Part shown: positions 8,365 to 64,000 of the stretch, one piece after another
Numbering within the stretch: the first letter of the stretch is position 1
How the letters are laid out: every line of letters begins with the position of its first letter
Origin: Chrysomallon squamiferum
Taxonomy: Eukaryota > Animalia > Mollusca
Direction of reading: 5' to 3'
DNA: 64,000 bases
NCBI GenBank assembly: GCA_012295275.1
Contig: CM022670.1
Span: 13,640,001 to 13,704,000 of the forward strand
The notes under the pieces: model-generated
What the model was told of the DNA's origin: nothing
Database searches by the model: none
The model's input: only the letters and a program-made list of their open reading frames with translations
Position numbers and translations under genes: made by a program

Positions 8365-9364
8365 CCTTGGACAGATGAAATTAGCCAAACAGTGTCATTT
8401 AGTTTTTTTTTTCTTCTTCTAGGAACTGCAGAAGAAATGGGAAAATGAAAAACTTTACATTGAACCTGGCTTTTCTTACTGTATTTTGTGGGATGAAGAT
8501 GGAGTTTTGACGTAACTGGACATTATACACTTTAACAATATTGCACATTGCTGAAAACATCACTTTAACAAACATTTTCAGTGCTCAAAGCATATGTTTT
8601 TGATTTATCATATCCTGTAAAAATATTTTATCATAAAATTGATTCATTATTAATTTTTGTTATTAATATACATATATATATATATATAAGCAACACACAC
8701 ACACACACACACCTTTCTTATTCCTCCCTAACATAGCTAACTCATTTATGCATCTTTTTGCTACTGTGTTTGATATATATAATACATATGTTTTAAACAT
8801 ATAATGCATTTAAAACTCCTATCATATTCATCTTCTAATTCTTATAATATATCTTTCATAATATATTTTAAAAATTTATATAGATATATATATTTAATTT
8901 TTTATTTATACTAAAACCTTTTTTTTTTTTTTTTTTTCAAATGTGCTTTTAATATATTTTAGGTACACTGATAATTACAAAGCAGAAGGACATGTGGGAC
9001 TGTTTGTGAGTCAGCATCCAATTACAAAGGCCCATAACTCTTGTACCATTGAGATTCTGGGTTTTGGGAAGAAGAGATCCATAGCACTGGGAATTGGGCC
9101 AGAAGATTATAAAATAAACACTCGGCTAGGAGACGTCCTTTCATCAGTTGCAGTCTACGGAGATGGTCGATCGTAAGAGATTTGTCTTTCTATTAAATCA
9201 GAAACAATTGCTGGGAAATGCGTGCCATTTCTTGATACACACACCATAACCAAAATATGTATATATTCTGTCTCTGTTTCCATTGTTGATCCTGCCCTTC
9301 ACATATCTCCCCTCTCATATAGTTTCTTGCTTGCTTGCTTGCTTACTTAGTTACTTACTTACTT

Positions 9365-29995: not shown

Positions 29996-32900
29996 TTTTA
30001 TAACTATATATATTTTTTTTTTTTTGTTCTCTTATTATTTATTAATTTAAATGCAAACTCTAGCTTAAAGCATTTTGAAATTTTTTGGAACCAATATATT
30101 CATAACAATTTGTGTGTGGTTTTTTTCTTAACAGTATATGTCATATTTTTTATTTACTTGTTTATTTTATTTTTTTAAATATTTTTTAAAAATATTTTTT
30201 TGATGTTATGTCAGAATTACAAATATTTATTTTCATATTTTATCTTAGTTGTTGCTGCCACTGTGTGATAAAGTTTTTCCAGGTGGTCGGCCTGACTTTT
30301 CTAGAGAACAGGTGAGACAATACAAGATTTGTGTTATTTCTAAACAGACAGGTGTACTGTGAGACACTGTTTGACAATAGGTGCAGTAAAGCTAAACTTG
30401 AGTACTTTAAATTTTAAAAACTGTATCTTATAAAATTATCACAGTTTGTAATATTATGATACAGTAAAAATCTTACTACAGTCAGAAATAAGTTTATTAT
30501 ATTAATGGCAAACTTTGCTAGTCTCTATTAAAAAGTTCTGTTAAAGTCAAACGTTGTAACTGATAAATCAGGAATTTTTCTAATGATTATTAAATACCTG
30601 AAGAAGAATGGTTTTGCTAAAAAAAGAAAAAAAAAAAAAGGATCAATCTTGTTTCTGATTTATTTATTTATTATTTGTCAATTTATTTATTTATTTATTT
30701 ATTTCACAAACAGCTAGAAGTGATGATGTACCAGTTGTTGCAGATTTACACTGCACAGTGCCACATCATCGCTGAGCAGTACGGCAGTCTGCAGAATCAA
30801 CACATGTACAACTCGGGCACAGCCAAGATCAACAGTGCCATCAGCTATGACGACGTGAATGTCAAGACCACGGTGGATGTTGAAGATTCGTCCTACCTGC
30901 TGAAAAGAAAATTCCGCAACCACTGCCTGTGTAAAACACACCTGTGGACGCTGGAGAAAACCAGCATGTCTGACGAGGTGAGTGTGGACCTGACCATGAG
31001 CTGCTTCACGCCCTACGAAGAGACTGTCAACTGCTTCGCTCGAGACCTCTACACAGTCAAGTCCCTGCCTCCAGACCTGTTTGAGAAATTTTCAAATCTG
31101 CAGTACTTCTCCCTTGACGTCTGTGAGGCCATGAAGAGACTTCCCGAAGGAATATCCGGATGCAGACGTCTGTCCACCATTTCCCTCTGCAACATCGCCC
31201 TCACGTCGACTGCCTCCCGACATTTTTGTGACTCCTCAGCTGGAAAACCTCACCTGTTCCAACCTCATGGTCAAGACATTGCCTGGTCAGTGGCCTGTGT
31301 CCAGCAAACTGACCAGACTGGTGTTATCAGGTTTGCAGTTGGAAGCAGTTCCCAAGGAAATCTGCAAGTTGCAGGAGTTGCACTATTTGGATCTCAGTTT
31401 CAATCCACTGACTGATCTGCCCATTGAGTTTGGAGAACTAAAGAAGCTGAAGAGTCTTTCGCTCTGTGGTAATAATTTTCTTTTATCTACTATATCTTTA
31501 GTAATGTCTTGTGTTTGTATAGCATATATTCTAATAACTATTTTGTTTTGTATATTTTTAAGCTTTTTTCTGTTTTTCTTTTTTTTTTTTTTTTTTTTAG
31601 GTACATTAATAATATTTTTGTGCAGTAAATATATAAAATAACTGAGAAAAACAGTTTTGTGCACAATATATTCATGGCAATAAATTACTCATGATGTATA
31701 TGTGTTAATGATCTTTTGTGCAAGAATGACAAAATCTAGATATTTAATTTTTGAGATTTTGGGGGTATTTTCATGAAAACAATGAATGTGTTTGTAAGAA
31801 AACATATCAAGAATTTATCAAAAAAAATTCTCAAATAAAGTGGAATTTTTTTATCATTTTAAATTGTCAATTATATTATAAGTTTAAACATAGATAATTT
31901 TACTTGAATATTTAATTAATTATTTTCCCATCAATTCCAACGTAATTAAGTAACTAAAATTGTATGGAAACATAATAGGTGTCTGAAATAATATTGTGAC
32001 TGTTTGTTTCAGGAATGCCTTGGATTTCAATGGACCATAACAAAACCATCACCTTTGACATTTACACAGACTGGTTCAATGACAGACCATACATACAAAA
32101 CTTTTTGTCAAAAGAGGTAATGTGAATACCTACAAACCTTTTTCATATTTTCCTTAATTATTTGTATTTATTTTCTACATGTGGTGAAAAGAGAATAATA
32201 GAAATAACATTTAAAAAAAAAAAATAAAATGAATAAATATAATTTTGTACTTTATTCATAAATAGATTTGATATTTTAATATTCAGTTAAATAACAAAAC
32301 AGCAGGAAGAAAGTGTTTATTTTGTTTGTGTCTAAAACTGAATGATGTTTTATATCTTATCAGAAAATCATGCAGATGTATTCAGAATGTGATGTCAGCA
32401 AAAATGGAATGCTTGATGTAGAAGATATTGCAAGGTTAAATCTCAGACTGTTCTGGGAAATTCCAAGAATTGGATCCAAAAACCTGAGTGAGTAGCATTC
32501 TGCTGATGATAAATGTTGCTTGTTTTTTTTTGTTTTTTTTTTTTCAATCTAATTATTTTATTCAATAAGAAGAATTCAATTGATTAAACTCACTAACATT
32601 TATGATTATGTCAAATATTATTTGTTTGGCACCAAGTACTTACTAAAATTAATTTTTATTTTTATTTTCTATAATTTTAATTTTTTTTATTATTATTATT
32701 ATTTATTAGTTTTTATAGCCTTAACAAAAATCTTATTATGCATTTTCCAGATGATGAAGAATATGGTGGTATTCCGCCTGCGATATTTCTGCTTACCTCC
32801 CTTGAAGAGCTCTTTCTTGACCACCAGGCTATTGTTGCTGTTCCTGCCTACATGTGTCGTCTGCTCAACTTGAGGGTTCTCAGTCTGACAAATAACCCTT

Positions 32901-35900
32901 TGTTGGAAAGTTTGCCTGGTTCCTTAGGACATTTACCAAATATAAGAAGTAAATGCAACAGTTTAATCCGATTTGATAAAATTAAAATTGTTTTTAAAAT
33001 TTGTAACCTGTATTGAGACCTGGCCATATATTTTATAGTTATAAATATTTCATATATAGATGGCAATATTGTAAATTATCATCAGTAAAAAAAAGTTTAA
33101 AGAAAATATGTTGACACAGAGAAAAAAAAAGAAAATATCTAACAATATAATTTTGAGTTGGCAGTGTTTATTTATATTTGTAACAACAAAATGTATTTAA
33201 TTGTATAAAAAAAAAAAGCTCTAGGTTTCTTCACTGTATAAAGTGCACATGCAGCTCCAGTTTTAAAGGATAATAACACAGAAGGCTGATAAGAAGATTT
33301 AAAAAAAATATTATTAGAAACTGTGTTCTGAAGTACATGAGTTCATGAGAAAATGTTTTATAGTAAAGTTATTAGACATTTTTGTTTTTGTGTTAAAATA
33401 ATAATTTATTTTCAGACATGTTTTGTTAAAAGAAATTCCTCACTGTTGTGTTTTTCAGGCATTGATCTGATGAGCTGCCCGTCTCTGTGCACTCCGCCTA
33501 ACGAGGTGGTGAGTCGAGGGTTCGAGTCTGTCAAGGCCTATCTCAAACGTCTGGCAGGAGGATTTGCCGTGTGTCGCAGAACAAAACTCATGTTTGTTGG
33601 TCTTGGAGGAGCAGGGAAAACAAGGTACAATTCTGGCATCATTTTCACATTTTAATAAAATAATAATAAAAATATAAAAAGGAGATAAAAAATAAATAAT
33701 AATAATAAAGTAATTCATATTATTTTATAGGTTATCCATGGTTTGGTAGGGCACTATCTGTCTATTTTAAAAATTTGTAATTTCTAGTCTTCTGAAAGCT
33801 CTAATGAGTCCTAAAAGAGGACAGATGGGACAAAGGGAGAAGCAATCACTGATGGAATTATTATCCAGCCATGGACAATCAAAAATAGTGATGGTCTGGA
33901 GGTCACCTACAATACCTGGGACTTTGCTGGTCAAACCCTGTACTACAACACACATCAGGTTGGTATAAACATTCACCAACAACTGAATCACACTTTCTGA
34001 TTGTATTACATCAAGTCAGAAGAATGTTCACCAAGTTCCTATTTGATTGTTTTTAGTGATCATCCTCTGATTTATTCATATTTATACTCATCCTCTGAGT
34101 TCTGATTTGTTCATATTAATACTCATCCTCTGAGTTCTGTCAACATTTTGTATTTGTTGATGTCAGATTTAGGATTAAAATCAAGCAGGAATCCACTAGA
34201 CTCTATATTTGAAATTGCCACACTTACCTGCTTGATTTGATAAGCCAAGGGAGAGAACCCTAAAGCTAAGTCAGCAGCACATTTTCATTAGAACTCTTTA
34301 TCTTATCAGACACTGTTTGTTATTATAATATTTTTGGGGATTAACTAAATTTGTTAATTATATTAAATAAACTTATGCAGATGACAACATATTTGTAAAT
34401 TATTTGTATTTCAGTTCTTTCTCTCAAAGAGAGCCATCTATCTCTTACTGTGGTCAACCAGACAAGGATTTGAACATGCTGGACTTGACTTCTGGCTTAG
34501 TTCTGTGGCCTGTCACGCCCCCCACACTCCCATTTTTGTAGTTGGCACTCACTGTGATCAGGTAGAATCTTTTTTTTATTATATATGTGAAATATTAACG
34601 ATATTCCACTGATACACTGATACACTCATCATTTAAAATGACTTGTTTGAGGACTAGTTTAGCTCGAATATTGAAATAATTTTATGTATGTAAAAATTAT
34701 TTTATCTCTATATATTATTATGTAAATGTCTCTTTATGTCAGTTTTATTATGTGTTACAATTCATTTTTTTTTTTTTTTTTCTATTTTATTAATAATGTA
34801 TCTGTCAAATTAAATTTTATTTAGTTAATAACATCTTGTAATGCTAATGGTATTGTTATATAATAAAAATGATTTTCTTATGTACAGGCAGCAGATTAGA
34901 ATGATTTAGTGAATGGTTTCCAAAAATGTTAATTGTTTTATTTACTTGCTTTTTTATTTCTAGGTTCTGCCTTCAGACATTCTTTGTGTTATTAAAGATC
35001 TGAATCAAATAAAATGTTTTTATATATAACTATATAATTAATAAAATATAACTTTTTTAATAATATAATTATTATACAGGTACCTAAAGCTGATATTCCT
35101 CAACACCAGCTTAAAGAACGCTACCCACAGATTGTTGGTTTTCATTTTATCAGTTCTGTGCAAGGAAAGGTATGTACAAATTTTATTCTGTTTCTAGAAT
35201 GTTGCAACTGAATGAAATTTATAAACCCTGTCTCTAAAACTCCATTACTAGATGTGTTATTAAAGAAACTGAAATGGTAACAAGTTATTCAAATCCACAA
35301 AGGTGATATATATGTACACCTATTAAACTGTTTGCAACAGGAAAATACGTTGTCTCAAATAGAACCCACCTGACACATACTCAGCCACAGTCTTCCACTC
35401 TGAAATGTTAAATGAAATTAAAACAACCAACTCCATTTCTAGATATGTGGATTTATAATGTGTTTTGGAACATTAATGAGACCTGTGTGATATTATAACT
35501 ACAGGGGATAGCTGAACTGGAGCAGAAAATGCTGGAAGTGACTCTGGCCCAGAAAAATATGGGGGAGAAAATTCCTCAAGTTTGGTTGAGTCTGGAAGAG
35601 AAAATATTAACGTAAGTCGCTGTTCATTAGACATTGATATGTTATTTATTTCTTCAGCAACCAATACACATATATCTGATATGACTATCAGAAAAATGAT
35701 AAAACATCTTTACCAACACCAACACCAACACCACCCAAAACCCCCCAAAAATAAAACATTATTTTTTCAGGCTATATTAAATGCATTGTTATTTTTGAAA
35801 TAATTAATAATATCTAAGGTGGTGAAAGTATGTAGTCTAAATAATCTTACCAAACAAAGAGTATTTGTGTTTTTGTTTTTATTTGAAGTATTTGATTGTT

Positions 35901-37154
35901 TTTATTAATATTTTCCCACAGAGCCCGTAGACAGAAAAGTATTTTAGAGTGGGGAGACATCAAAGCCTATGGAATGGATGTTGGAATCTATGATGAGAAA
36001 GATGTAATGAAGACAGTCTCCTGTGTTACATATCTTTATTCCAATAATTCCATAATATAAAGCTGACATTTAAGGAATTTAAATATTTTTGTTAAATTAA
36101 TTTGGTTAAACTGCTACACTGAGTCATTGAATAGTTGTAATTAAATAAGTTTACTTATTTCGTTACATGAAACGAACCTCTCAAACTGATCTAGTAAGTG
36201 TACTATAGTATTTGTATTTTAAAACCAAACTGAAGCCTTTAAGCTTTAGGAACATACAAAACTTAACTTCACATGCAGTTCAGATCCATCACCTAGATTT
36301 TAAGTTTTTTTTTTTTTTTAATATTTATTATTATTTTAATTCATTTATATTAGTACTTTTAACAATGTTTGACCCATGATCAAAATATTATTTAATTCCA
36401 TAATTTGATTGTTATAATAGTTTTTTGTCCTTAGTGTTTTATTTTAGTTACAGTAATAATTTTAACAGTGAATGGCCCATTTTCAAAAAAATGTTTAAAT
36501 GTTCTGACATGAGGATTTCTATTTGTTATCTAATCCATGATTCACAATAGTCTATATTCTGTCAAATGACAAATCAAACTTGGATTCACTAATCTGACAC
36601 TAAAATTTCTGTGGTGCTCTGAAAACCAGGATGTAATCCATTTTCTTAAAAAAAAACTTTTGAGAATTACTTTATGATGCATTTCTGTTTTAGATAAGGG
36701 AGGCAATCCAGTTCCTGCATGAACTTGGGACAGTACAGTATTTTGACAACGACTTCCTTCGTGATCACGTCGTCATCAATCCACAGTGGATTGTCAACGT
36801 CATGTCATGTGTGGTGTCAGTGAAAAACTCACCAATCCAGGTAAAAAAATTAATTTTGTTTTGTTTGTAATTTGTTTAATTTATTTCAGGCTTGTGAATT
36901 TGAAAATTACAGAAAATAATTGTAGGTTTTGAAATCAACATAAAATATCAAAAGCAAAGAAATAATAAACAAATTAATGCACACACACACACACACATTT
37001 TTGTTTTAATAATAATATATATATACACACACACCTACATCACATATATATATACACATATACATATACACACATACATATACATACATACATACATATA
37101 TATAAATATATATACACAAATACATACATATATATATATACATACATACATACA

Positions 37155-37190
<36 letters not shown>

Positions 37191-38563
37191 CATACACACA
37201 CACATATACATTAACATTTATTTATTTATTTATTTATTTAATACAGCTAAATACTTCTACCTCTGATACACCAGACATCCTGCTTTAAATAATATGGAAT
37301 AAAAATTAATTTAAATTTTTTTTTTTTTTTTTTATTTAAAATATCTGATTCATAATGTTGCATTTCAGGACAAAAATGGTCGCTTTGAACACGTAGACAT
37401 CCCAGTTGTGTGGAAGAACTACCCTGTGTCTCTGCACAACTGGTTGTTACAGCTGACTGAGGAGTTTGATTTGACATTTCCCATACCCAGTGAACCTGTC
37501 AACATAGTGCCATGCCTTCTTCCTCACGAGGTTCCAAAAAATGTTAGTTTGGTTAATATTGCCATGTTTTTATATATTCCTGTTTTTATAGATTTTAGCA
37601 TTTATTTTTAAGCAGGTGGGTTTATTGATTTAATTTTTTTTGGATAAAATCATAGGTTAATAAAATAATGATTAAATTAACATTATAATCATCGTCATCA
37701 TCAATATTATTATGCTTTCAGATGTAATCATTCTAAAAAGAAATTATAATGTCCATTGTTTGACACTGAAAATTCATCCTTTCTTTAATTAACTCTGCCA
37801 TTGTTAAAAAAGGATTTTAACATTACAGTTTCATCTCTGCTTTAATACTGGTGCTACACATTTTGGAATTAACTTTAAATTTTTGAAGTTTTGATTTCTA
37901 TATTTTTTTATTTTTTTTTATTTTTTGTCAGCTTGAATGGCCATCCATAGAGGGACTTGAAGGAATTCGTGAGACAAAGATTGTCTATAAATTTACCTAC
38001 CTGCCTGCTGGACTGTTCAATCGAGCACAGGTGAAAATATTTTTTGGTAAAATTATATGTAATTTTAATTATTTTCAATGATCAAGCTGATGAAGAATTG
38101 TTATTAAAATATTGTTTAATGATTTCCACCTCCCTGAAGAAAAAAATACCATGACAGTTTTTTTATTATATGAATAGTTTGGTCTGATGATTAATTAACT
38201 TTATTTTTTATACAAAGGTAAAAAAAATAATAATAATAAAATAAATAAAACAAATGTAAATTTTTTTTTTTAAATTATTATTTTAAAATAAAACTTTAAA
38301 TTATGATCAATTATAATAAGATTTTTTTTCTTCTGTTTGAATAGTGATTTTTTTTTCATGTAAAAAGAATCAAATAATTTATTTTGATTACTTTGTTAAT
38401 GTATCAGTTTAAATTATTTTATGTTTAGTGTTGAGAATTTAATCCTCAAATAACATTTTTTATGCTAAAAAAATGAAAAAATAAAAACAAAACCATTTTT
38501 TTTTTTTTTGTCTGTCATAAAAAATAAAAAATGGTAATAAGAATACTTTTAAGAGTTAAGTTT

Positions 38564-38607
<44 letters not shown>

Positions 38608-39246
38608 TCAAATTTCTATTTTTAAAAAAAAAGTAATATTCATTATGAAAAGATAATCAAATATTTTATGCATATTAAATTAATTTTGTCTATTAATAAT
38701 GTAATTATCCTTTTAATTATTATTATTAAATTAATGGCTCAGTTTAATTCATGTTGCAGGTCAGGTTATTCCAGTTTTCAAGTAGTACACTGATATGGAA
38801 AAGAGGTTCACTTCTACAGAAAAACAATCATCTTGCACTTATTGAGCAGTCTGGGTGAATATTTACTTTCATACTATCTCTTTCAACTACCACATCATTG
38901 TCAGCGATTGTGTGTGTGTTATTGACGTTTGTTTGTGTATGTGTGTCTGTGTGTGTGAGTGTGTGTGTTGTGTCTGTTGTGGGTGTGTATGAGTGTGTGT
39001 ATGATGTGTGTATGTATGATGAGTTTGTGTGTATAAATATGTGTACGTGTATGTGTGTGTATGTGTATGTGTGTTGTGTATGTTATGTCTTATGTGTGTG
39101 TGTGTGTGTGTGTGTATGATGTGTGTCTGTTGTGGGTGTGTATGAGTGTGTGTATGATGTGTGTATGTATGATGAGTTTGTGTGTATAAATATGTGTATG
39201 TGTGTGTATGTATGTGTATGTGTATGTGTGTTGTGTATGTTATGTC

Positions 39247-39305
<59 letters not shown>

Positions 39306-42300
39306 TGTGTGTGTGTTTGTTTGTTTGTCTTCCTGTCAGGGTATGTGCATGTTATGTGATTAATGTTATAATCTTCATCTGAAAACTATTCCAGAACTTA
39401 CAAATGTTTTTCATCCATTGGATAGTAAGGAAAGTTACTGAAAAATGTTCTGGCTTTAAAAGAAAATGAATGTTCAAATGGTATTATTTGCAGCCCTAAA
39501 AAAAAGTAAATTTGAGAATAATTTAACATTTCAATTTCAGAGATTCTGAACTGATAGTTAAAGTTCAAGGTCCTCGACCTGAAAATGTCATCTTCCTGGT
39601 TCATGAAATATTTGAAAGTTTGATTGAGGAATCATTTCATGGTGTGGTGTACCATTTCCTGGTGCCCTGTCCTGACTGTGTCCTCAATGAGGTTTGTGTC
39701 ACTATCCAGACTCCAGTGTACTTGACATTCCTTAAATAATCTGAAGACAAGCTGATGCTTGAAAACCATAAAATGTCTTTAAATTAATTTTAAAAATTAT
39801 CTAGAACATCCTACAACTAAAATAATTAAACTAATCTTAAAATGTTAATTATGTTATTCTGATTATATAAATCTGAAACAAAATCTTTTTTAATTTCCGA
39901 GATACAGTCAGATGTCATAAAACTTGCAAAATCATTTAATAATTATCCTCAGTTTAAAATCATTTTTTCTTTGAATTATCCCTGAACTGTATTATGGAAT
40001 TTATTCCTGAAGTATCCTAGAAAATGATGTTAATTTACTTATCATCTATCCTGAAAATTAACTGTAATTTACACTTGGAATATCTGTTAATGACATGATA
40101 ATTTAATTGTGGAGGATCAAAGAAAATGATGGTAACTTGTACAAGAAATGTTTTGGAAAATAATGATAATTTCTACTAGAATATTCTGAAAAAAATCATC
40201 TGCACATAATTCTGATATTATTATTATTATTATTATTATTATTTGACTCTCAGGGGACTCTGGAACCCAGCTTGTTTGAGTCAGAGCTTATCAGCCATGC
40301 TAAAGACTGCAAGGCTCCCTTTCTTCAGTGTCGTAAATACTTCCACACAGTATCAATGGGACAGCTTCAAGGTTTGTTTTAAAACTGCTCTTTATGGTTT
40401 CTCACTTAAAAAAATACTTAAAGTAAAATAATATTATAATTAAGTTTAAGAAAGCCCACAAAAAACAATGCCCACAAAAAACAGTGCCCCCAAAAATCCC
40501 CAGACAACCTGTTAGAGAAAGGATATAAATTTAATTCTTCTGTGTTTAAGGAAATACATTTTAATCATTTATTGTACTGCATAAATGCTGACACACAGAT
40601 ATAAATAATGGCCATTTTAAATATGCAACATCAACCACAATATTCTCTGACCAGAGATTAAATGTTAAGTCAACTGACTGAAAATTAAAATGTGCTAGGA
40701 CATACTTGACAATCACAAGCTAGTACTAGATCTAATTTTGGTTTGTGGAAGACCATTACATCCTCTCTTTTCTCTAACCAGGAAACTGAATATCTGGATT
40801 ATGCATCAAAAAGATTTGTGCTTAAATCATCAGAATATACAGATGTTTTAAATGGTTGATAGTTCAATCAAGTTTTATAGTTCCATCAACTTCTGTCCTA
40901 AACTGTTCACCATCCTGTCATCCTGTTACATCACAATGAATAGGGCTGGTTTAGCTTTGTTATTTTGTAGTCACAATGAAAAACAACAATCAATGTGGCT
41001 GATATTTTATTACCAGTCCAGGCTGATATTATTTCCTTATGAAACTCTGATGGTTCTGAAACCTTTACTCACAATAAATTAACAGATGCATCATATTCAA
41101 GTAGTATTTCTTAAATTATGGTATATTTTGTTTTTAAGCAGAGCTCATATACACCATTACCTGTTTCATGTTACGTTATTATTGTGGTTGTTATGGTTAT
41201 TGCTATGGTTGGGTTGTGGTTGTTATTAACATCATGGTTGTTGTGGTTGTAGTCATTATTGTTGTTGTTGTTAATGTCAATTCACGTTTTCCAGATTCTG
41301 TACCTGACGTCAGTGACTTTGACACACAGCTTCACAGTCGAATCATTGCTCTGCAGCAGCTGAATGACGACAGAATGACTGATGTTGCCATACTGTACAG
41401 TGCCTTGGACCTCCCCCACTCCAACAAAGACAATAAAAGCATCAATCCAATCTGGATTAAAAATGATCTTGAGAAGGAGAAATTTTCTGTGTGAGATAAA
41501 ATATTTGATTTATTATTTTATTTTATTTTATTTTATTTTAGATTGTTTTATTTTATTTTATTTTATTCTATTCTATTCTATTCTATTCTATTTTATTCTA
41601 TATTATTTTATTTTATTTTATTTTATTTTATTCTATTCTATTCTATTTTTTTATTTTATTCTATTTTATTTTATTTTATTTTATTTTATTTTATTTTATT
41701 ATTTTTTTTAATACTCAGTAAAATATTGTGTATATAAATAAATATATTATTTTATTATTATTATGTTTTGTTTTATTATTTTATTTTCAAAATATAGTAT
41801 AATAATTTTCCATATTTAATTCAGTTATCTTAAAGATATCAAGTATAATGAAATCAATGGAAAAGCTTTTTACAAATGTTTAGGTTTTATGCTATCCATA
41901 GAGCATAATTATATCATCCTAGTACATGCTGTCTGTCTCTGAGATAAATAATGTAGAAGATATTTTATTGTTAGAAGGCTTTAACTTCATTTATTTCATG
42001 CCTTGTCATCAGTAACAAAATAAATAAATAATTTTTTTTTTATATTGTTAGACATTCATTTATTCATTTCATATAATATTGTGAACCTTATTTTAGATAT
42101 CTTTCTTATTTTTCAGTTGGTTTTGTGATGATATGGAGAAGGTGTCTACCGAAAATTTGGTTTGGGGCATCAAGAATTCAAAGGTAAACAGTCCTAACTA
42201 TTTTTATTTATTTACAAACATCTGATTTTATGAGATAAGTTTGATTTCTGTGCTTAGCTTAAAGGCTATTTTAAGTTTTTTAAGTATCTGATAAAACTTT

Positions 42301-42609
42301 GATTAGTTGAATATAGTTGTCTAGAATATCTAGGGGCATGTTATTTTAAATACATGTACATATAATATGTCATTTATGTGTATTTTGCACAAACATATAT
42401 ATACAAGTCAGTCTGTTTATGTGTACATTATGAATGTGTGGCTATATTTGTCATCCATGTGTACCTGTGTGTCTGTGTAATCAGTATTAATGTGTGCATA
42501 TGTTTGTATATACACATGCACACACATGTATGTATATATACACATACACACACATACATACATAAATACATGCAACATATATATATGTGTGTGTGTGTCT
42601 CTGTGTGTG

Positions 42610-42688
<79 letters not shown>

Positions 42689-43007
42689 ACATTTATTTAT
42701 TTATTTATATATTTTTAGGTTGTTGTTGCGCTGCTGTCTGACAACTTTGAGGGTGACAAGGAGAAGTGTGCAGATATGTTGTGGTATGCTATGGACGGTT
42801 TGAAAAAGCCCTATGTGATCACAGTGATAACAGAAAGCCTTGCATGGCAGGACACCGACCTTGGTATGAAGATCGGAAAACAGGAAGTAAGGAAAATAGC
42901 TATTAATTATTGTTAACAAATACATTGTTTACAGTAATGAAAATGTTTTTGTATGTTTTTATTTAGATTACTTTTATAATGTTTTAATTTAAATACTTAT
43001 TTATTGT

Positions 43008-43041
<34 letters not shown>

Positions 43042-43815
43042 CTTATAAATTAGGCAGTCATTTAAACAATTTTTAGTACCCATTATATGTTCTTTTTAAA
43101 CAGGGTGGAATCTTTTAGAACTGTTTTGGGTTGGAACAAAAGTTCACAGAGTTTTTAAGTGAAATCTAAAGACAATATTTAGATATTTTTACATACATTT
43201 TATTCACTGACATATCTGCCATTTTATTAACATTTCAGAACATGTGTATGTATCATTCACATTTGGAGCAAAATCACATGTCCAAGCACCAGTTGTTGAA
43301 AAACACTACTAATGTATTGTAGCCAACTATTATGGAATGCACATTACTTCTGACTGTATATTTATTGAATTAAATACTTGCTGTGGATTAGACAAAATGT
43401 TAAATAAACCATACTCCATTAACATAAATTTCCATTGCAGTTGATGGTCATGATAAAAAATGAGTCTCGCTACAAAGACAAAGTGAAGGATCTTTTTGAT
43501 ATTGTCAGAGACAGACTTACTGAACTAAATAAAAAGGTGTGTAATCCCTTACTTTTTATTGCATCTCCTGTGTAATACAAACGGTTTTACACTGACTGAT
43601 ATATCACGTAATTACCCAGTCATGTAATGTCAGATTGTAACATACGAATGAATGTGATTTGACAATGCCTTGAAACAATTTATTATTACTAGTATTACTT
43701 ATATGATTCTTGTATAATGTACAGATTTTTTATGATATGGGGATCCCAATGATTTGTATAATATCATTTAATAAAATGGATTCTTTATATATATATACAC
43801 ATACACATTCATACA

Positions 43816-43859
<44 letters not shown>

Positions 43860-44904
43860 TATATAATATATAGATAGATACATAGATAAATAGATAGATA
43901 TATTGTTGAAAAAGAAAGCACTTACTGTGGACTCTGAAGAAAGGGAAATATCCTGAAGAGAAAACTCAGAAGGACTGATCTTGCAGTCTTTCATATTTGT
44001 AACATTTATAATCACAACAGTAAACCAATATGAATACAAAATACTAAATAACAAAAACCCCAAAAACAAATTTTAATAATCATAATAATTTGTGTATTTT
44101 CTTATTTTCACGATGACAGGAAACCAAGGACACTCCGACATGCTTTGTCAGTTACTCCTGGTCAAACTCCAAAGACGCAGTCGAGAAAGGAACAAAACCT
44201 AAAGAAGGTTCAGTTGGATGGGGCGATCCTCGTGTGATAAAGAAACACCTTGAAGACAGCGGTTTTTCTACGTGGATTGACTACGAGAAAACAACCGGTG
44301 GAGTAAGTAAACATGACAGTTATTTACATTCTTTCACATCACAAACATGTTTATTCTACGTTTAGTTACGCATATATAATGCAGATTTGTTACGTTCATT
44401 GGAATTAATTTTCAGTCGAGAAGTCTTGTATGATGACTGATTTTGTTCACGTTTAATATTTTTATTGCTATTATTATTATTATTGTTTATATTATTGTTA
44501 TTTTTATTAGTAGTAGTTGTGATGGTGGTAGTAGTAGTGGTAGCAGTAGTATTGTGTGCATTGCATGGTTACATATGTTTTCATTATAATATTTTATTAA
44601 TGATGTGTAAGATTTGTACTTGATGAATATTGGAATAAAAGATGAATTGACAAACAATATTCAGAGTCCAACCCATGTGTATCTATTAGTATATACATAT
44701 AATTTATTACTCACTGACACACAAATCTGGAACAAAAATAATGATGATGATGATGATGATATAATAATAGCAATGATAATAATAAAATATATTTTTTGTA
44801 GGGAGGTGGTTTGTTTCAAAGATTGGCAAGTGCAATTCGACATACTAAAGTTTTTATTGCTTGTGTTTCAAATGAGGTGAGGGTTTTTTCTCTGTATTTT
44901 CTTT

Positions 44905-44940
<36 letters not shown>

Positions 44941-47900
44941 TTCTTTTGATTATGTAAACATATACACCTGTTTGTCAAAATATATGTGCCTCTGTTTTTC
45001 TGCGTTTTTTCATTCACTCACATTTGTTCATACACACTTATTTGCACATGGATACCTGATATATACACATTCCATCCTAAATATAAACAAACACTAAGAG
45101 AAATATAAACACAACTCTTTTTTCTTTACTACATTTAATGTGTGTACAGTAGCACTATCAAAATCCACTCAACTCAATTTTGATGCCGCTGCATAAGTGT
45201 ATATATTATTTCATTATTTTTGATAATATTTGAAAGAATTGATTTTTTTTTTTCTTGTTGTAGTATGCTGAGTCAGAAAACTGCATGATGGAACTGAGGT
45301 TTGCGGTTCTTAACATTGACTTACCCATCATTCTGTGTGTTGTTGGCACCAACAGAGGCTGGGATACATCTGAGGTAAATGTAAACCAAAACAAACAAAC
45401 AGCAGAGTATAATCCAGTTTATCATAATCATAATAAACAAATTAAAAATGTAAAATATATTTCAATGCAATAGTTTATTTATCATCATTTTCAACATTTC
45501 TCATCATCAGAAATAAATGTAAATTAAAAACATTTACATTATCATCATTATCAAAAAAACCCACACCAAAACCCTTGTCATTTTTGGATTTTCAACATCA
45601 TTCCCAGATGTTGGTTGAGTAATTAATTGCTTGTTTGTTTTTTCATCTCTTCAAACTGACAGATTGGCATTCTGAGTCAGAGATCAAAAGCAGCAAGGGT
45701 GTATTTTCAGAAGGAGAATCCTGAAGCTTTCAACACTCTGATAGATTTTGTGAAGCAAGCAATCACATCAAGAAACCAGAAAGCAGTGTCCAAGAAAAAG
45801 ATAGCCAAATTAGAGAAGTCGGAGCTAAAGAAGAAACAAGCTGCTAAGATGACCAACATTTCATTTCAGGTGATTGTCAATTGTTACTTAGATATTCTGT
45901 GCTTTTGTGTTGAAAAGATTGTTGCTAAATTGAGATTGTTCAGAAGATGGTAAATGAGTTTAGTGAAATCACTATAGTAAAAACTATTAATTTTATGATC
46001 AATATGAAAAATCTTTTTGTTAAAATTATAATAAAATGGTTTTTTGATGACAGTAATAAAAGGTGTTGTTACCAATTAAGATAGTAAATGGGATTGAAGG
46101 AGATTACACCATCAGATTTAAATCCATTTAAAACTTTATTCTTTCATGATAAATAAGTTGTATCTTCTTTAAAACTGATAACCAGTATTTGACTGTATTA
46201 TCAATTTAATATGACAAATTTTGACCTCCTAGATTTTGTCATGGATATATACACAATCTATTAAAGCCAACAAATATGTATTATCAATTTTAAACAAAAA
46301 AACAAGCAGATGACATTTTGCTTCACAAAAGCACATTTATAAACAAAATGCTGGATATTCTTGGAGAAAATAATTTACTTTAAAAAGTACCCCACCTACA
46401 CATATGAACTTAAAATGCATTATATTTTTTTTTTCTTGTATCACAGGAGGAATATGAGCTGATCCAGAGGAAGTTTATGCGTCATATTATCTCCTTTACC
46501 AGCCTCTCTGACTCGAGTCCCATGCCTCGGTTAATTGTTTTAGACTTTGACGTGAAAACTGAAACGTGTCTGAGACACAATCATCCAGCCAGGGACAGTC
46601 ACAGCCTGAGACCAACTTCACGTAAGTTGATTTGAGAAACAAGAAAATGTTCAGTGTACTTTATCAGACAGGAGCAAAATTACATAAATATTCTTTTTGT
46701 TTTTTAATGCTATCAGGTTATTGTTATATTTGCTTTGGGTTAAAGAATATATATATATCTTGGTTTTAATAAAATACATATATATATTTATATATTATCA
46801 ATTCAATTTAAAAAAAAAATACATTTATATTTTTTTTTTTTTAATGCTATCATTATTGATTTTGCAATTAAAGAATAAATATCTTTATATATATATAGAA
46901 TTATTCATTTATTATTTACAAAAAATTTAAAAATATTTTGGAATTATTCATTATAGTTTCAAAACAATTCATAGTTTCATACATTCATTTCAAAATAAAA
47001 ATGCAGTTAGAATTTTTTTAATTAATTATTATTATTTAAAAAAATTATGATTAAATTTATTTGCAGTTGGAAGAACAAATCTGAATATAACATCTAGTAA
47101 GTAGTTGTTGAATAGATTTAGACATCTTATTTCCAAATTTCAGTAATACAACTTCATCAGTGGGATTTTTTTATTTTCAACATTATTCCTTATGGTTTTT
47201 CCTGAAAAATATATTTTGGTTTACAAGCAGAATTAATGTCTTCTGGTTATAGCTAGCTAATTTTTCATTCATAACTAAGTTGTAGTTTAATAATAGTTTA
47301 CTTAACTGAAATGCAATGGATCACAGGTTCAGTCTTACTTAGCATATATATTCCTTGTATTTCATTTTGTTTCATTGAAATTCTTAATAAAAATTTGTGG
47401 AAAGTGCTTTCCTGTTTCTGGGAGTGTGCACATAAAATATACTTTGAAGCTAATCATAAGAATAACTGACAGTGGTAGTAACAGTTTTCCTCTCATTTCA
47501 TTATTATTAAGATATGAAAGTCATACATGTAACATCTAAATGATCTTTAATGTTATTAACTAAATCTTTGTTTATTCAGTTTATAACTGTAAAGTTAAAT
47601 AAAATAATACTTTTAAAATGTTGATCTTATTGCTGTTTCTTAATCATATTTTAATGACTATAATAATAAAATAATAATAATAACAATAATAACAAAACTA
47701 ATAATTAATAATAATAATAATAATTCAAATTTCTATTTAAAAAAATAAAATTAATATTCATATTAGAAAAATACTGTGAAAAGATCATCAAGAATTATGC
47801 ATATTATTTCTTTTTTGTCTGTTAATAATGTAATTATCCTTTCAGATCTGAAATTGAAGTCAAAATTATCTTCTGTGTCTAGAGGATCTTCTACTTTTGA

Positions 47901-48655: not shown

Positions 48656-49150
48656 GCAGATGCCCAGATGTTTTATATGAAAATATTGCAGATTGCCCCA
48701 GGATTCTGTATTTTATAACACATGTCTAAAGTATTATTTCAGAAATTCTAGTGGGTAAACTGATATCCAAAAAAACATTTATTTATTTATTTATTTATTT
48801 ATTTGTTTGTTTGTTTGTTTACTGATGTCTAATTTTAGGGATATTATTATTATTTTTTTTTTAAAAAACCCAGATTTTTTAACCAAAGATACAAAATACT
48901 AGAATTTCTGATCTTTTCTTATTAAAAAATTGTAATAATAATATTAATTTATTGCAGCCTTTTATTTTGGATGACGAGAGTGAGAACTGGGAACTGGAAA
49001 ACTTTTGCATTAAGATTCTATGTGAACATGAAGAGGTGAGAGAAAATATTGCTATCCAGAAATTTAAAGTGTATGCTGGTACATACAAATGATGTAAATT
49101 GAAATGTATATCTATTAAACTAATTGATTGATTTGTTTCTTTTACATGCA

Positions 49151-49189
<39 letters not shown>

Positions 49190-51485
49190 TTTTGCATATT
49201 AACTACAAATTGGTCTTTGCTGTCAGTAAAATGTTACAATAAAACAGCAGGATAAATTATGAGGACAGACAGCTGCTGAGTTTTCACTAGTTTTATGATG
49301 TCATTTTGAAACTGAAAAAAAAAATGCTTCACATGGACTACAAGTATGATAGTCTTGCAATGACCTTCTGAAACTGTTTGTTTGTTTTGAGTGTTTGTGT
49401 GGGATTTTTCATTAGGTAGAAGTTAATTGTAAACATTTCCAGATATATAAATCCACTTCTTGTCAAAAGACATTTGGTGCTAACTGATAGATCATGTTGT
49501 ATTACGATTTTAACACATTTCTGTTTATTTTAGGGATGGCACGAAAGCAAGAAGTCATACCCATTTAGAAAGGGTGATGACTTTTTTGATACAATGAGAA
49601 AACTTGCACCCTACTTGTTCCGGCTGTACTGTATTTTGAAGCAGAGTTCAGTTCAGCTGAACTGTTTTGTTGGTGAAAGAGGCAGGAAGTTTCATGAGTG
49701 GATTGATAAGGTATGCATCAACCTGGTACAGTATGCAACAAAACTATGTCTAATTTCATGTGTATAAACTGAGAAAAGTAAAACTAGATATACTTTAAAA
49801 AAATAATAATCAACAATTCAGTTTTAATGTTTGTTAGGTTTCAGATGTAATTCTGATTATAATAATGTTATGTGAGAAGAAATCTTTTGCTTTGTTTCAT
49901 AGGTTAATGTTTTTTATTAGCATCACAACATATTTTGTGTGCAAGATTGTTAGTTAGGTACGTTAATAAGCCAGCTGAGCAGAATCATCTGTAACAAGAG
50001 ATGTGTCTAGCTATGTTTGGCAAAATGTAGTTTTGAAAATTCCTTGTCACAAAAGAACAGCACCTAGTGTGTTGTATGGTGTGCTGCCTTTTTAATACTA
50101 TATTACAAAATTCTATTAAATCTTTATATTGGCAAGGACATGTTCACTCAGGTTCATACAATGTAAATGTATAATGCACTTTCGACAAAATAAAATGAAA
50201 GTAGGACTATTTCATGGTAAATGAATGCATTCAGAAAACAATAATTTATAACAACAGGAATCTCAACACATCGATTTCCTGGAATCATTCAAAGCTATTA
50301 GAGAAATTCTTGCTGATGATAATGAAGCTGCTGATTTTCTAGGACAACTCTGCAGGTTAGTTTTTAATTTTTTGTGTTGCTGAAACTTGAGGTTTATTTA
50401 AATACACAGCATCTCAGGAGCAGAACAACATTTGATGGACTACGGAAATTATACTTAGAATGGATCATCAGTGCATTCTGATCATTCCTCTAAGATGAAA
50501 GAATCTGGAATAACTTTAATGATAATAAATTATAAGTAATTAATTTTGACTTAAGCTTTAAGATAACACTGGGTACATTTTTGCAAGTAGAAGAGGTGAA
50601 AAAAAGTTGTTATAAATCTAAAGAATAAAGTGTTTAATGTTTTACACCAGGTATTTAATCTGGTTTGATACACGATGAGGTGTCACTAATTTCAGATGTC
50701 GTCTACCCAGTGGAAAGGTCTACTGGTTATGTGAGGAGCATCAGTCTGGTCCTAGAATCACCAGACTGAGTCCAGATACAGGCACCAGTAAGAATCAACA
50801 TAGAGTTATCTTCCCTGAAGACACTGCCATGAAAGAAATGTTGGAGAAGTCCGATATCTTTAAGAAACGAAAGTTAGAAAAGTCAAAATCAGTAATCAAA
50901 CTTCCTCCAGCAAGTAATGGTGAGCGAACTATGTAATAATTTTTTTTTTCTGATTTCTTTAATTTTATTTTTCACATTCAAATTCAGTATTAATTAATAA
51001 ACATTTGGTTTTATAATAAACTTTATTATCAACATGTTTTTCCCTTGATACTGATAGCTGTTATGTGTGAATCCTATAGCTTTTGTACGCTGAAATTTGA
51101 GAGGGTTTATTATTTAGTTCTACTGTATGTAATAGTTAAGTGATCTTTCATATTGACTTTATCACAGATGTGAAAGTACATCCAGGTCATCTAGTTATTT
51201 TTGTTGTTGACACTACACTGGTGATGGTAGTGTAAATGTTACTATTATTATTTTTTTTTTTTTTTTTGTTAATTTAAGCTGATGTCATTACAAGCCTACC
51301 AAGAAAGATTTCTGTGAAGAATGAGGATAAAACAAGACAAAGTGCTTTGAATCTGCTGATGCTGGCTTCAAGTGAGTCAAGAAAGATTTGTTTTTCAGAA
51401 TAACAGTAAATTTATTTCTTTGTTTATTCATTTATTTATTTACTTATAAACATTTAAACAAACTTATTTATAATTTCGATTTAGA

Positions 51486-58575: not shown

Positions 58576-58711
58576 ATATTTTATTTATTATACTGTATTT
58601 TGTTTGTAATTTTTAAAGTATTTATCTTCTTTTGTTATATTCCAAGTGTTTATGTATGTCTGAGTGGATGTGTGTGTATGTATGTAATGTGTGTATACAT
58701 ACATACATACA

Positions 58712-58742
<31 letters not shown>

Positions 58743-58794
58743 TTATTTATATGTATACATGTATACATGTATCTATTACTTTTTTATTTCACAG

Positions 58795-61700
58795 TTGAAA
58801 AAAGAAGAGTGAAATGCTCTGACATTGTTAATGAAAATGAGGAAAAAAGTGAATTAGTGAAAATGCAATCTAACGATGGAAAACCATGGAAACCTTATCT
58901 TAGTAAAAATGATGTTGAGTGGCTGGCTGAGCTCAGCCAAGCACAAAGTACATCAACAGTGGCGGAGATGCTGGACGATGGGGAAACACTGTTGTGTACA
59001 CTTTACAGTGAGATTGCTGGAATGCTGTATTTTAATGGCAAAGTAAGATAAAATGTTTTAAATTATTTAATTATTTATTGAATTTATTTATTTCTACACG
59101 ATTTATTTATATATGAAAGTATAATTGTATCTGTTATTTAGAAAAATTATACAGAAATAAACCAGTGGTAATGCTGGTAAATGTATTTATTTATTTACAA
59201 ATCGTAGTTTTACTTGTTACTGAACACCAGCCTTTGCTGATCATAAAATATAACAAAATGACAAGTATGCATCAAGGTCACTTTCACACACACACACACG
59301 CGCGCGCGGTCTGTGTGTTTAAGGGTGTTTAGTATCATACTTTATTATTGGCAAAGAATCATTAAGAGATAAAAAAAAATTAGATTCATACAGTTTAAAA
59401 CAGAGAAATAATTCAGATTCAGTTTACAGTTTAAATCAGAGAGATAATTCAGATTAAATTTGTTGATTAAACAAGATAAATCATTTGTGTTTGAATTTGT
59501 AGGTTGGTCACCTTGAAAAAGTAAATCTTCTAAGAGAACCCTGCAACTGTTTTGATCCCAATGCCATCATGGTGCTAAATAAAGATAGAATAAAAATGGG
59601 ATATATTGAGAAAACGAAGGCCAAGCCACTGGCTGGAATCATAGACCATCAGTTGGCTAGAATTGAAGCGTACGTAGAGTATGATAATATTTCCAGGCTG
59701 GATTTATTACTGCAAGATCTTAACAGACAGAAACTTTACTTTATTTATTTTAGGATTCCATTATTACTAATATAATTGTTTTGTTATTAATATTTGTAAC
59801 TGCTATAGCATTCATTTTGAGAAATTTAAGTGGACAATAAATATGGAAAAATTGTGGGATGTACTTAGAGAAGTATGACCTTTTTTATTTTAGGATTCCA
59901 TTGTTATTATTAATATTTGTAACTGCTATAGCATAATGGTAATTCATTTTGAGAAATTTAAATCTGAAAAAAAGAAAAAAAAGAAAGATAAAACTAATGT
60001 TTTAGTAAATTTATTATAGAATATGCTTTATGGAATTTCTGTATGTTTTTATTCTTTAAAACAGAAAAGGCCAGGTAGGAGACAGAGGTAGTCCTTATTA
60101 TCAAGTGTTGTAGTGAATTAGAATGTTTTACAAAAGTGTTGCACTTATCTTGTAAAGTTACTTGTCCTACAGCAAAATGTTCAGCCCTAAAAAATTAAAA
60201 GAGTTGTTTTGAGTAAAAATCAATGTATCTTACAGTGCATGACTGAAAACAAGGTTCATTAAGTCTAGGCAAATGTAAGACAACAACGACAACAAATAAA
60301 AAGAAAAAGAACACTGATAAAACTGTATGTAATAAATGGTTAGTTGCTCTGTTTTAATAATCATTTGGTTTAATTAACATACATAAATTATGAGAAGACA
60401 GTCAGATCACAATGTGAGCAGTGCTGGATCACAGCCAGTGAAATAACACAGCCCTCAGAATATAAGTATGTGTCTATTTTCAAAACTGTAGTCCTATAAA
60501 CAGTTAATTGAATCTATCTATTTATCTATCTATCTGTATCCACACACATCAGAACTGTTTTCATCAGAACTGTATTTTCATTTTTCAGTGTAGTTCAACA
60601 AGACGTTTTTACATTTGGGGTTAATCTAGAAATCTGGTGCAAGCAAAAAAACTGTCAATGTGTTTCATTTATTCTTCAAGATCTCTCATTTACAACAAAT
60701 AATGTATCAAAAGAGGTCTGTGTTTAATATATCTCTTTGTAAAGAATACACATAATAATAATATTAATAAGTAGAAGTAGAAAAATGGTAATGATGATGA
60801 TGATGATAATGCTAATAAAAGGAATAATAATAATTATAATAATAATAATAATGTTGATGATTATATAATAATAAAAACAGTCTCTCATATTTAATTTATG
60901 CAAAAATCATAATTGCATACTTGTACATAAATCAAATTTAATTTCCAGATACAGGTATAATTTCTTTTATTCATCTATTCAGGTGGACAGATTATTTGAA
61001 TCTTTACCTGAGGGTGACAAAACATCAATGGCAGAGGCAGCACCAGTCAGTATTGACTAAATTTTGTTTTACTTCATATTTAAACAATTGTTTCTTATAT
61101 ATTTTTTCTAAATATCAATATTAATTTTTAATTACTAATTAATTATATGTAAATACATTCTGACAAGTACGTATCATATTTTGGATGTGTGTGTGTGTGT
61201 GCATGCTTGTGTGTGTGTCACTTTTACCCTCACTTTGTACTTTTTTATTTGATCTTCAACTATATGTGTATATACATAGCTATAAATTAATAAAAATATG
61301 TTGAATGTCTTTAAATAAAAAAAATGTTCTTTGTCGTTTGTTCTTACACTTCCTATAATATAAATACTTTATTCATTCTTCCAAGTGATTAATTTGAAAT
61401 CTAATCTATTCTTTGCTAATAATAAAGGCTGACAATATCATGGCTTACTCAAGTAAATACTGAACTGATTACTGTTTTTCCTTGTTGTCCAGAAATAAAT
61501 AAAATAATTACAGAATTTCAAGATATATATATATATATATTTAAAATTTTGAAATTCAGTTTTTACTTTTCATTTGCTGTTACATGAATCCATGGCCAAA
61601 AATTTAGGTTTCATTCCTATCAAATTCTTCCATTTGTGAAGTTATTTCAGTTGTTAAAATGGCATCTAAAGTTTTCCATAATGGTGAAAGACACCAAGAC

Positions 61701-63930: not shown

Positions 63931-64000
63931 GTGGGTAGAATTTAGTTTTTTAGTAAAGTAAATGTTAAGTTAGAAATTAAAATTCAGTAATGTTATAAGT

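Follow-up and report, generated by a model that had tools for sequence, protein, structure and literature searches.

Enzymes built on Toll/interleukin-1 receptor (TIR) domains are central to nicotinamide adenine dinucleotide (NAD+) signaling in bacteria, in plants and, through SARM1, in neurons. The activity of SARM1 depends on self-association, the TIRs of plant resistosomes work as asymmetric pairs with one active site engaged per pair, and the RPS4/RRS1 couple consists of one active and one restraining TIR. Enzymatic action of animal immune TIRs beyond SARM1 is a current question, as stated in the accessible part of a preprint (10.64898/2026.04.20.719644). Closest by layout to the gene considered here are the LRR-ROC-COR-TIR proteins of the Aplysia californica immunome, LOC101848126 (with MBT) and LOC101845043 (with EF-hand), which the accessible text files with Toll-like receptors (TLRs) and MyD88-like adaptors, giving one TIR per ROCO protein and mentioning neither a cryptic first TIR nor a pattern of glutamates (PMC9334734). 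Bacterial LRR-AP-GTPase (Roc)-COR-effector proteins carry TIR among at least 24 effector domains and are predicted to be counter-invader immune sensors, according to the available sections of Kaur et al. 2021 (PMC8195603), and a red-algal TPR-ROCO-TIR layout is listed in the available part of another source (PMC11378527). Here, we analyze a 64,000-nucleotide stretch of the Chrysomallon squamiferum genome (assembly GCA_012295275.1, contig CM022670.1, positions 13,640,001 to 13,704,000; hereafter, the window) and describe on its plus strand a ROCO gene whose GTPase module is followed by two unlike TIRs: the second (TIR2) has kept the helix-C glutamate (Glu) of catalytic TIRs, and the first (TIR1) is, as judged from its sequence, a cryptic pseudo-TIR that lacks it.

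The window is intron-bearing, animal-type DNA (~28% G+C, AT-rich, dense in microsatellites and short open frames), and a prokaryotic locus is excluded. The locus holds a ROCO gene that is transcribed and spliced, exceeds 3000 codons and has the domain order SPRY-LRR-EF-hand-like-Roc-COR-A-COR-B-TIR1-TIR2-C-terminal domain. Eight exons with GT..AG borders (T1 to T8, Table 1), read directly from the sequence between 41295 and 45869, join to an open stretch of 366 residues in a script-made spliced translation, in which TIR1 runs as DVAILYS...FEGDKEKCADML and TIR2 as CFVSYSWSN...YAESENCMMELRFA. An earlier reading made from the sequence alone (the sequence-only reading) had ascribed to TIR1 an AILYS motif without the catalytic Glu, and to TIR2 an FVSYS(W) motif with a Glu codon at 45291–45293. 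Both statements are borne out by the spliced translation: 45291–45293 is GAA and encodes the Glu of CMMEL (SENCMMELRFA) in TIR2, and the position aligned with it in TIR1, within KEKCADML, is an ATG codon (Met, 42776–42778). The range of 41295 to 45374 given there for the pair stands only in part: the tandem TIRs do lie there, but TIR2 continues to ~45767 in T8, and the first ~27 residues of T1 form a conserved linker helix outside TIR1.

An exhaustive phmmer search with exon T5 returned 170 proteins at E ≤ 0.001, the best library match reaching 71% over the exon; a word-index homology search with the same exon gave no match among proteins of 110–2000 residues. Named members come from bivalves (Ylistrum, Pecten, Argopecten, Sinanodonta) and gastropods (Haliotis, Physella, Bulinus, Elysia), and others from the annelid Dimorphilus, the nemertean Tubulanus and amphioxus; they are labeled uncharacterized or bear automatic names (MFHAS1, protein kinase). 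For alignment, 32 relatives (molluscs, annelid, nemertean, amphioxus) were picked from 152 proteins by a single BLAST segment spanning both TIRs, with three near-identical amphioxus isoforms dropped, which together with the window gave 33 members. Three proteins of the freshwater mussel Sinanodonta woodiana (P0139, P0154, P0155) fall into one 90% cluster, and their locus tags (ACJMK2_032637 to _032639) follow one another on a single contig, pointing to a tandem array of ROCO-TIR genes in this species.

At the helix-C position, TIR2 has Glu in 33 of 33 members. Conservation of this residue in orthologues was the test that the sequence-only reading had set itself, and the residue proved invariant. 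At the same position of TIR1, none of the 33 copies has Glu, the residues found being Leu (12), Ile (7), Met (6), Ala (5), Val (2) and Phe (1). In a search with a TIR2-type profile, the family Glu aligned with the Glu of the S-x-W-C-x-x-E-L motif in Cat1 (CWDEL, E 9.6e-8), TLR6 and TLR1 (CHYEL). For only 6 of the 26 TIR2 columns conserved at ≥90% is the residue shared by at least 50% of the TIR1 copies, and mean pairwise identity amounts to 46% for TIR2, 26% for TIR1 and 19% for the linker. Some positions (S, K, W and P) are conserved in TIR1 in their own right, and TIR2 has a conserved, family-specific insertion, N-S-x-x-A...G...G-x-x-D-P-R, adjoining strand A. A quick maximum-likelihood tree built from 73 domains has every one of the 33 TIR1 copies on one side of a branch with a Shimodaira–Hasegawa-like approximate likelihood ratio (SH-aLRT) of 97, which points to an old TIR duplication and to a Glu lost once, before these lineages split; by alignment and tree, the dead copy TIR1 is of single, old origin. 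Outside the ROCO lineage, P0071, P0125, P0145 (from a ctenophore) and P0143 contain two TIR2-type domains with Glu in both, and two other two-TIR proteins (P0096, P0120) have Gln plus Glu. Since Glu is kept in both copies outside the ROCO lineage, the dead-plus-live pattern is particular to that lineage.

That TIR1 is a TIR at all follows from its comparison with TIR2 and from modeled folds. The two window domains are identical at 31 of 132 positions, with CADML aligned to CMMEL (two-sequence BLASTP, composition statistics off, E 2e-11), and their 33-sequence profiles match each other in hhalign with a probability of 99.8% (E 2.5e-28, 121 columns). A family hidden Markov model (HMM) of TIR2 picks up both TIRs, in the spliced protein of the window as well as in the tandem relatives, and places one domain at residues 49–169 of the window protein. 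Folds were tested on models of two relatives, P0103 and P0059, which are 37% and 46% identical to the window over the aligned parts. The AlphaFold2 model of P0103 (503 residues, 24-row alignment) has a mean predicted local distance difference test score (pLDDT) of 74 and a predicted template modeling score (pTM) of 0.41; it contains two beta-alpha domains with pLDDT mostly 80–94, and 85–94 in TIR1. In VIA-align, its TIR1 (residues 61–199) matched the Hydra TRR-2 TIR (Z 16.2, root-mean-square deviation (rmsd) 2.7, 121 aligned) and the SARM1 TIR (Z 14.5, rmsd 2.7, 125 aligned), and its TIR2 (residues 210–370) the TRR-2 TIR (Z 16.3, rmsd 2.1, 120 aligned) and the SPARTA TIR (Z 16.3, rmsd 2.3, 133 aligned); TIR2 of the P0059 model reached Z 15.7 to TRR-2 and 15.3 to SARM1. 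Thus, with hhalign at 99.8% and fold matches of Z 14–16 for both halves of a relative's model, the earlier assignment of both domains to the TIR fold holds. When the family alignment profile was searched against the PDB, COR dominated the result (LRRK2 COR, E 1.3e-13), accompanied by weak TIR matches to Cat1 for TIR2 (E 3.7e-7) and to TLR5 over the TIR1 part (E 0.0059).

The crypticity of TIR1 is best seen in the long relatives. All 15 scanned with Pfam carry Roc, COR-A and COR-B, and in 14 of them Pfam TIR_2 starts ~200 residues past COR-B (45–94 bits vs. a cut-off of 28); TIR1 fills this ~200-residue 'gap'. Taken alone, TIR1 of P0141 is sub-threshold (E 0.064, 14.2 bits). As Pfam misses TIR1, database entries list a single TIR.

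The TIR pair directly continues the Roc-COR module in frame: a single base left over at the 3′ end of the final COR-B exon (40371) makes up a codon together with 41295–41296. Pfam Roc matched the exon open reading frames (ORFs) at E 2.9e-4 and 1.4e-4, each exon alone under the cut-off, COR-A at E 2.6e-11 (44.1 bits, cut-off 35.3) and COR-B at E 1.4e-5 and 5.4e-9 (36.5 bits, cut-off 27). The G1, G3 and G4 motifs of Roc are present, the Roc exons are 65–89% identical to those of the scallop protein P0009 (tblastn), and Roc is directly followed by COR-A and COR-B, the ROCO arrangement, colinear with relatives that pass all three Pfam models. Splice phase, P-loop and Pfam matches to Roc, COR-A and COR-B hence support the GTPase part of the sequence-only reading, in that the pair stands in frame after an intact Roc-COR. 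The further suggestion of that reading that the dead-plus-live pairing mirrors two Roc domains is not supported: the plus strand of the window holds one GxxxxGK[ST] (at 33599), one Roc stretch was found per relative in 15 of 15, and self-BLAST of three relatives revealed no second Roc copy.

P0009 (Ylistrum balloti, 3222 amino acids, 'uncharacterized') is colinear in tblastn with the window from ~11 kb to 50.9 kb, and the gene spans at least 39 kb, with at least four further exons 3′ of TIR2. Toward the N-terminus, Pfam SPRY matched the ORF 11086–11325 (E 4.3e-4), the other two SPRY-like exons having no Pfam match alone, and the ORF 30621–31412 reads as LRR, with no Pfam match for the ORF alone. 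The EF-hand-like exon between LRR and Roc hints at calcium input. Among the 15 long relatives, the N-termini comprise SPRY in three, MBT in five and PLAT in one; that these domains differ between paralogues is as expected of sensors, and the sensor end looks swapped between paralogues. The part 3′ of TIR2 opens with a long conserved helix (motif E-E-Y-E-L-x-Q-R-K-F). In the P0059 model (residues 259–590 for this part), a disordered stretch comes next and then a confident alpha/beta domain of ~180 residues with pLDDT >90. This C-terminal domain matched no Pfam family and had no usable ESM-Atlas match, and TIR2 filled both PDB searches of the P0059 model.

Transcription is documented by contigs from two RNA libraries of the same organism, which were aligned to 44100–45900 only and show the existence of a spliced form, not its level. 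The joint 44302>44802 appeared in one run and the joint 45374>45663 in two; a loose contig end at 44118 corresponds to the end of T4, and another at 45870 to the start of the next exon (46447). The joints within TIR1 and the T6/T7 joint are based on ungapped alignment with relatives. A pseudogene or an artefact was considered and ruled out, as the exons have open frames, are conserved and occur joined by splicing in RNA contigs. Inside the exon that encodes the Glu, one RNA contig (run X6) has T for C at 45326 and 45329, which the other RNA run and an unlabeled run do not show; these differences are probably allelic.

How, then, does this gene compare with the systems described so far? Like the Aplysia proteins, it has the LRR-Roc-COR-TIR order together with MBT/EF-hand accessories (an EF-hand-like exon in the window, MBT in relatives) and, judged by description, these proteins very likely belong to the same family. 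The bacterial proteins share LRR-Roc-COR with TIR at the output end, a likeness of layout, as far as the available sections go; the systems compared are prokaryotic or algal, and no tandem dead-plus-live TIR is mentioned in the accessible parts of the two texts (PMC8195603, PMC11378527). MFHAS1, LRRK1/2 and DAPK1 have the Roc-COR-A-COR-B core in common with the window gene, and one amphioxus member has been named MFHAS1 automatically, but their output is a kinase or nothing instead of a TIR pair, and the N-termini of the ROCO-TIR family are of SPRY or MBT type. The SARM1 TIR (PDB 6o0q, 9mw2 and others) resembles the family in fold (Z 14–15), in F-I/V-S-Y on strand A, in D-x-E-K where the BB loop begins, and in the Glu on helix C. 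In sequence, exon T5 aligns with it over FISY and the BB loop start (FIDVEK), a similarity that is not significant alone (E 0.2). SARM1 differs from the window protein in having ARM and SAM in place of a Roc-COR GTPase switch, and TIR2 differs from the SARM1 TIR in an insertion of ~20 residues after strand A and in its tandem with a dead TIR. Plant TIR-NLR (TNL) resistosomes (RPP1, ROQ1) and RPS4/RRS1 (PDB 7crc, 7dfv, 4c6t) are alike in combining sensor repeats, a nucleoside triphosphate (NTP) switch and a TIR effector of matching fold, and unlike in using a STAND ATPase with N-terminal TIRs, whereas here a Ras-like GTPase/COR precedes C-terminal TIRs, two unlike ones in one chain. The GTPase core between LRR and TIR, predicted to be cytosolic, argues against a Toll-like receptor layout.

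A reading that fits this architecture is that of a putative GTPase-gated TIR NADase with a pseudo-TIR partner, which the sequence-only reading had proposed to be a scaffold or inhibitor. As a whole, the protein is predicted to be an immune-type sensor. Ligand sensing would fall to SPRY and LRR, Roc-COR would alter self-association via COR-B according to its nucleotide state, and the domain after COR would be the output, as in other ROCO proteins. The Glu-bearing TIR2 would process NAD+ only once TIRs are brought together, as do the TIRs of SARM1, of plant TNLs and of bacteria. A COR-mediated dimer would gather four TIRs, two dead and two live; plant resistosomes likewise contain four TIRs, arranged as asymmetric pairs. 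TIR1 would supply the second face, either completing the TIR2 pocket or covering it at rest, and the product would be ADP-ribose (ADPR) or a cyclic ADPR isomer, acting as a signal or through NAD+ loss. In the accessible part of the preprint, every catalytic TIR tested is said to require the Glu, and Roc, COR and LRR occur, by the legend of Figure 3, in the architectures of those animal and protist TIRs that made cyclic ADP-ribose (cADPR) (10.64898/2026.04.20.719644). To the core of this proposal, namely that TIR2 may cleave or cyclize NAD+ when Roc-COR brings copies together and that TIR1 may serve as a non-catalytic structural partner, we assign about even chances. A fuller version appears unlikely to us: the family might constitute an ancient bilaterian class of immune receptors in which Roc-COR replaces the STAND ATPase, SPRY/LRR sensing leads to a COR dimer with exactly four TIRs (two dead, two live), the pseudo-TIR completes the live site and the messenger is of the cyclic ADP-ribose type, i.e. 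an animal equivalent of plant TNL resistosomes in which one chain contains the asymmetric pair.

Several observations weigh against an NAD+-processing TIR2. The Trp that Cat1, TLR1 and TLR6 carry four residues before the Glu occurs in no TIR2; 25 of the 33 members have Asn there. SARM1 (W638 and E642), plant and bacterial TIRs likewise have Trp at this distance, and Asn in its place makes the TIR2 pocket unlike those of enzymes with proven NADase activity. Glu alone does not prove catalysis, since TLR1 and TLR6, both of the adaptor class, have it at the aligned position too. The structure matches place enzymatic TIRs (SARM1, SPARTA, RUN1) level with adaptor TIRs (MyD88, IL-1RAcP, TRR-2), and the models, at a pTM of 0.41 (P0103) and 0.45 (P0059), do not show how TIR1 packs on TIR2. 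The TIR assignment of the window itself depends on the script-spliced translation; single window exons gave no Pfam TIR match at E ≤ 1 or E ≤ 0.1, which is explained by pieces too short for a match and is not evidence against a TIR. Enzymology was not found for the ROCO-TIR family, and of 61 Glu-bearing animal TIRs only 12 yielded product (cADPR-type) in the sole broad assay, run in Escherichia coli, according to the accessible part of the preprint (10.64898/2026.04.20.719644).

To some extent, these points speak for an adaptor role of both TIRs, in which the ROCO protein would seed TIR-TIR signaling assemblies that include MyD88-like or SARM-like adaptors, in the manner of vertebrate TLRs, and the invariant Glu would be structural or bind a partner. 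The absence from TIR2 of the Trp of the W-x-x-x-E motif, the Glu at the aligned place in TLR1 and TLR6, and fold matches to MyD88, IL-1RAcPb, TIRAP and Hydra TRR-2 that equal those to SARM1 are all compatible with such a role, as are the 49 of 61 Glu-bearing animal TIRs without product in E. coli (10.64898/2026.04.20.719644, accessible part) and the filing of the Aplysia LRR-ROC-COR-TIR proteins as TLR-like/MyD88-like, with a possible 'GTPase TLR signalling cascade' (PMC9334734, accessible part). However, Glu is kept in TIR2 in 33/33 members, from molluscs to amphioxus, and lost in 33/33 copies of its sister TIR1, which indicates selection on that residue in one copy only; moreover, even some Glu-bearing TLR TIRs make cADPR, as given in the available text (10.64898/2026.04.20.719644). 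We consider the adaptor role somewhat unlikely.

Alternatively, TIR2 may be an enzyme without being a plain NAD+ hydrolase, making cADPR, 2′cADPR or 3′cADPR or using another substrate, with the C-terminal domain or a separate protein reading the product. The altered pocket (Asn for Trp), the conserved family-specific insertion by strand A and the confident alpha/beta domain 3′ of TIR2 in relatives would suit such a messenger-forming enzyme, and most active animal TIRs made cADPR without depleting NAD+, according to the accessible part of the preprint (10.64898/2026.04.20.719644); yet the C-terminal domain matches no recognizable ligand-binding family, and we hold this alternative to be quite doubtful. 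Finally, TIR1 as a decayed duplicate and mere spacer between COR-B and TIR2, with no specific TIR2 contact, is improbable, for although it evolves much faster than TIR2 (26% vs. 46% mean identity, near the 19% of the linker), keeps 6 of the 26 TIR2-invariant columns and shows no fixed arrangement with TIR2 in models of low pTM, it has been retained as a folded TIR (model pLDDT 85–94) in all 32 relatives covering the region, from four phyla, with its own conserved positions (S, K, W, P) and a single origin.

Whichever role TIR2 plays, the conserved dead-plus-live TIR pair appears to be undescribed, LRR-ROC-COR-TIR itself having been noted already in Aplysia, by in silico analysis, and in bacteria. 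In the accessible parts of two further texts, a Dictyostelium protein is described with tandem diverged TIRs missed by Pfam (preprint 10.64898/2026.04.30.722052), and the words ROC, COR and Roco are absent from a TIR survey (PMC7075850). The literature searched, which did not cover Gerdol et al. 2017 on the ecTIR-DC families of bivalves, where this architecture may be described, contained no account of a conserved dead-plus-live TIR pair following Roc-COR in an animal protein.

The locus offers a natural experiment, in which sister TIRs share one chain, the Glu having been kept in one for hundreds of millions of years and apparently lost once, early, in the other, and in which both are coupled to a GTPase switch that nucleotides can lock. 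If TIR2 is active, the gene would provide an animal sensor-switch-TIR receptor comparable to plant TNLs and a test of whether a dead TIR can be the second face that a TIR active site requires. It would also be a case of a whole TIR domain missed by domain libraries, implying that TIR counts in invertebrate immunomes are underestimated.

Table 1. Exons of the ROCO gene in the window, listed from 5′ to 3′.
Feature	Position	Strand	Content	Basis
N-terminal SPRY-like exons	~8994–9164, 11110–11322, 20956–21111	+	SPRY-like; approximate borders	tblastn colinearity with P0009 and P0080
LRR exon(s)	30699–31470	+	LRR; approximate borders	tblastn of P0009 residues 1512–1771
EF-hand-like exon between LRR and Roc	32346–32492	+	EF-hand-like	Pfam EF-hand_7, E 0.0047, under curated cut-off; colinear with P0009 residues 1806–1846
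Roc exons	~33461–33622, 33815–33958, 34412–34570	+	G1 (P-loop GLGGAGKT), G3 (DFAGQ) and G4 (THCD), respectively	Pfam Roc, tblastn
COR-A/COR-B exons	36694–36867, 37366–37548, 37929–38057, 38748–38855, 39527–39736, 40254–40371	+	COR-A and COR-B	Pfam, tblastn
Exon T1	41295–41490	+	Conserved linker helix, then TIR1 strand A (DVAILYS), helix A, strand B	
Exon T2	42117–42183	+	TIR1 BB region and helix B	Ungapped alignment with relatives
Exon T3	42719–42886	+	TIR1 strand C, helix C (KEKCADML; Met codon 42776–42778), strand D	
Exon T4	43441–43536	+	TIR1 end and helix joining TIR1 to TIR2	Matched by RNA loose end
Exon T5	44120–44302	+	TIR2 strand A (CFVSYSWSNS), insertion ending GWGDPR, helix A, strand B (TWID), BB loop start	
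Exon T6	44802–44876	+	TIR2 BB loop (GGGLF), helix B, strand C (VFIACVS)	RNA joint 44302>44802
Exon T7	45264–45374	+	TIR2 helix C (YAESENCMMELRFA; Glu codon GAA 45291–45293) and strand D	RNA joint 45374>45663
Exon T8	45663–45869	+	TIR2 strand E and helix E (to ~45767), then Lys-rich linker	
C-terminal extension exons	T9 46447–46622, near 48883–49035, 49534–49716, 50691–50867	+	EEYELIQRKF helix in T9	tblastn; T9 start matched by RNA loose end

Downstream of the ROCO gene, the next gene (58617–64000, plus strand) is HLTF-like, with a HIRAN exon at 59503–59772 (E 2.1e-10) and an SNF2 helicase exon at 61965–62351 (E 6.8e-7).

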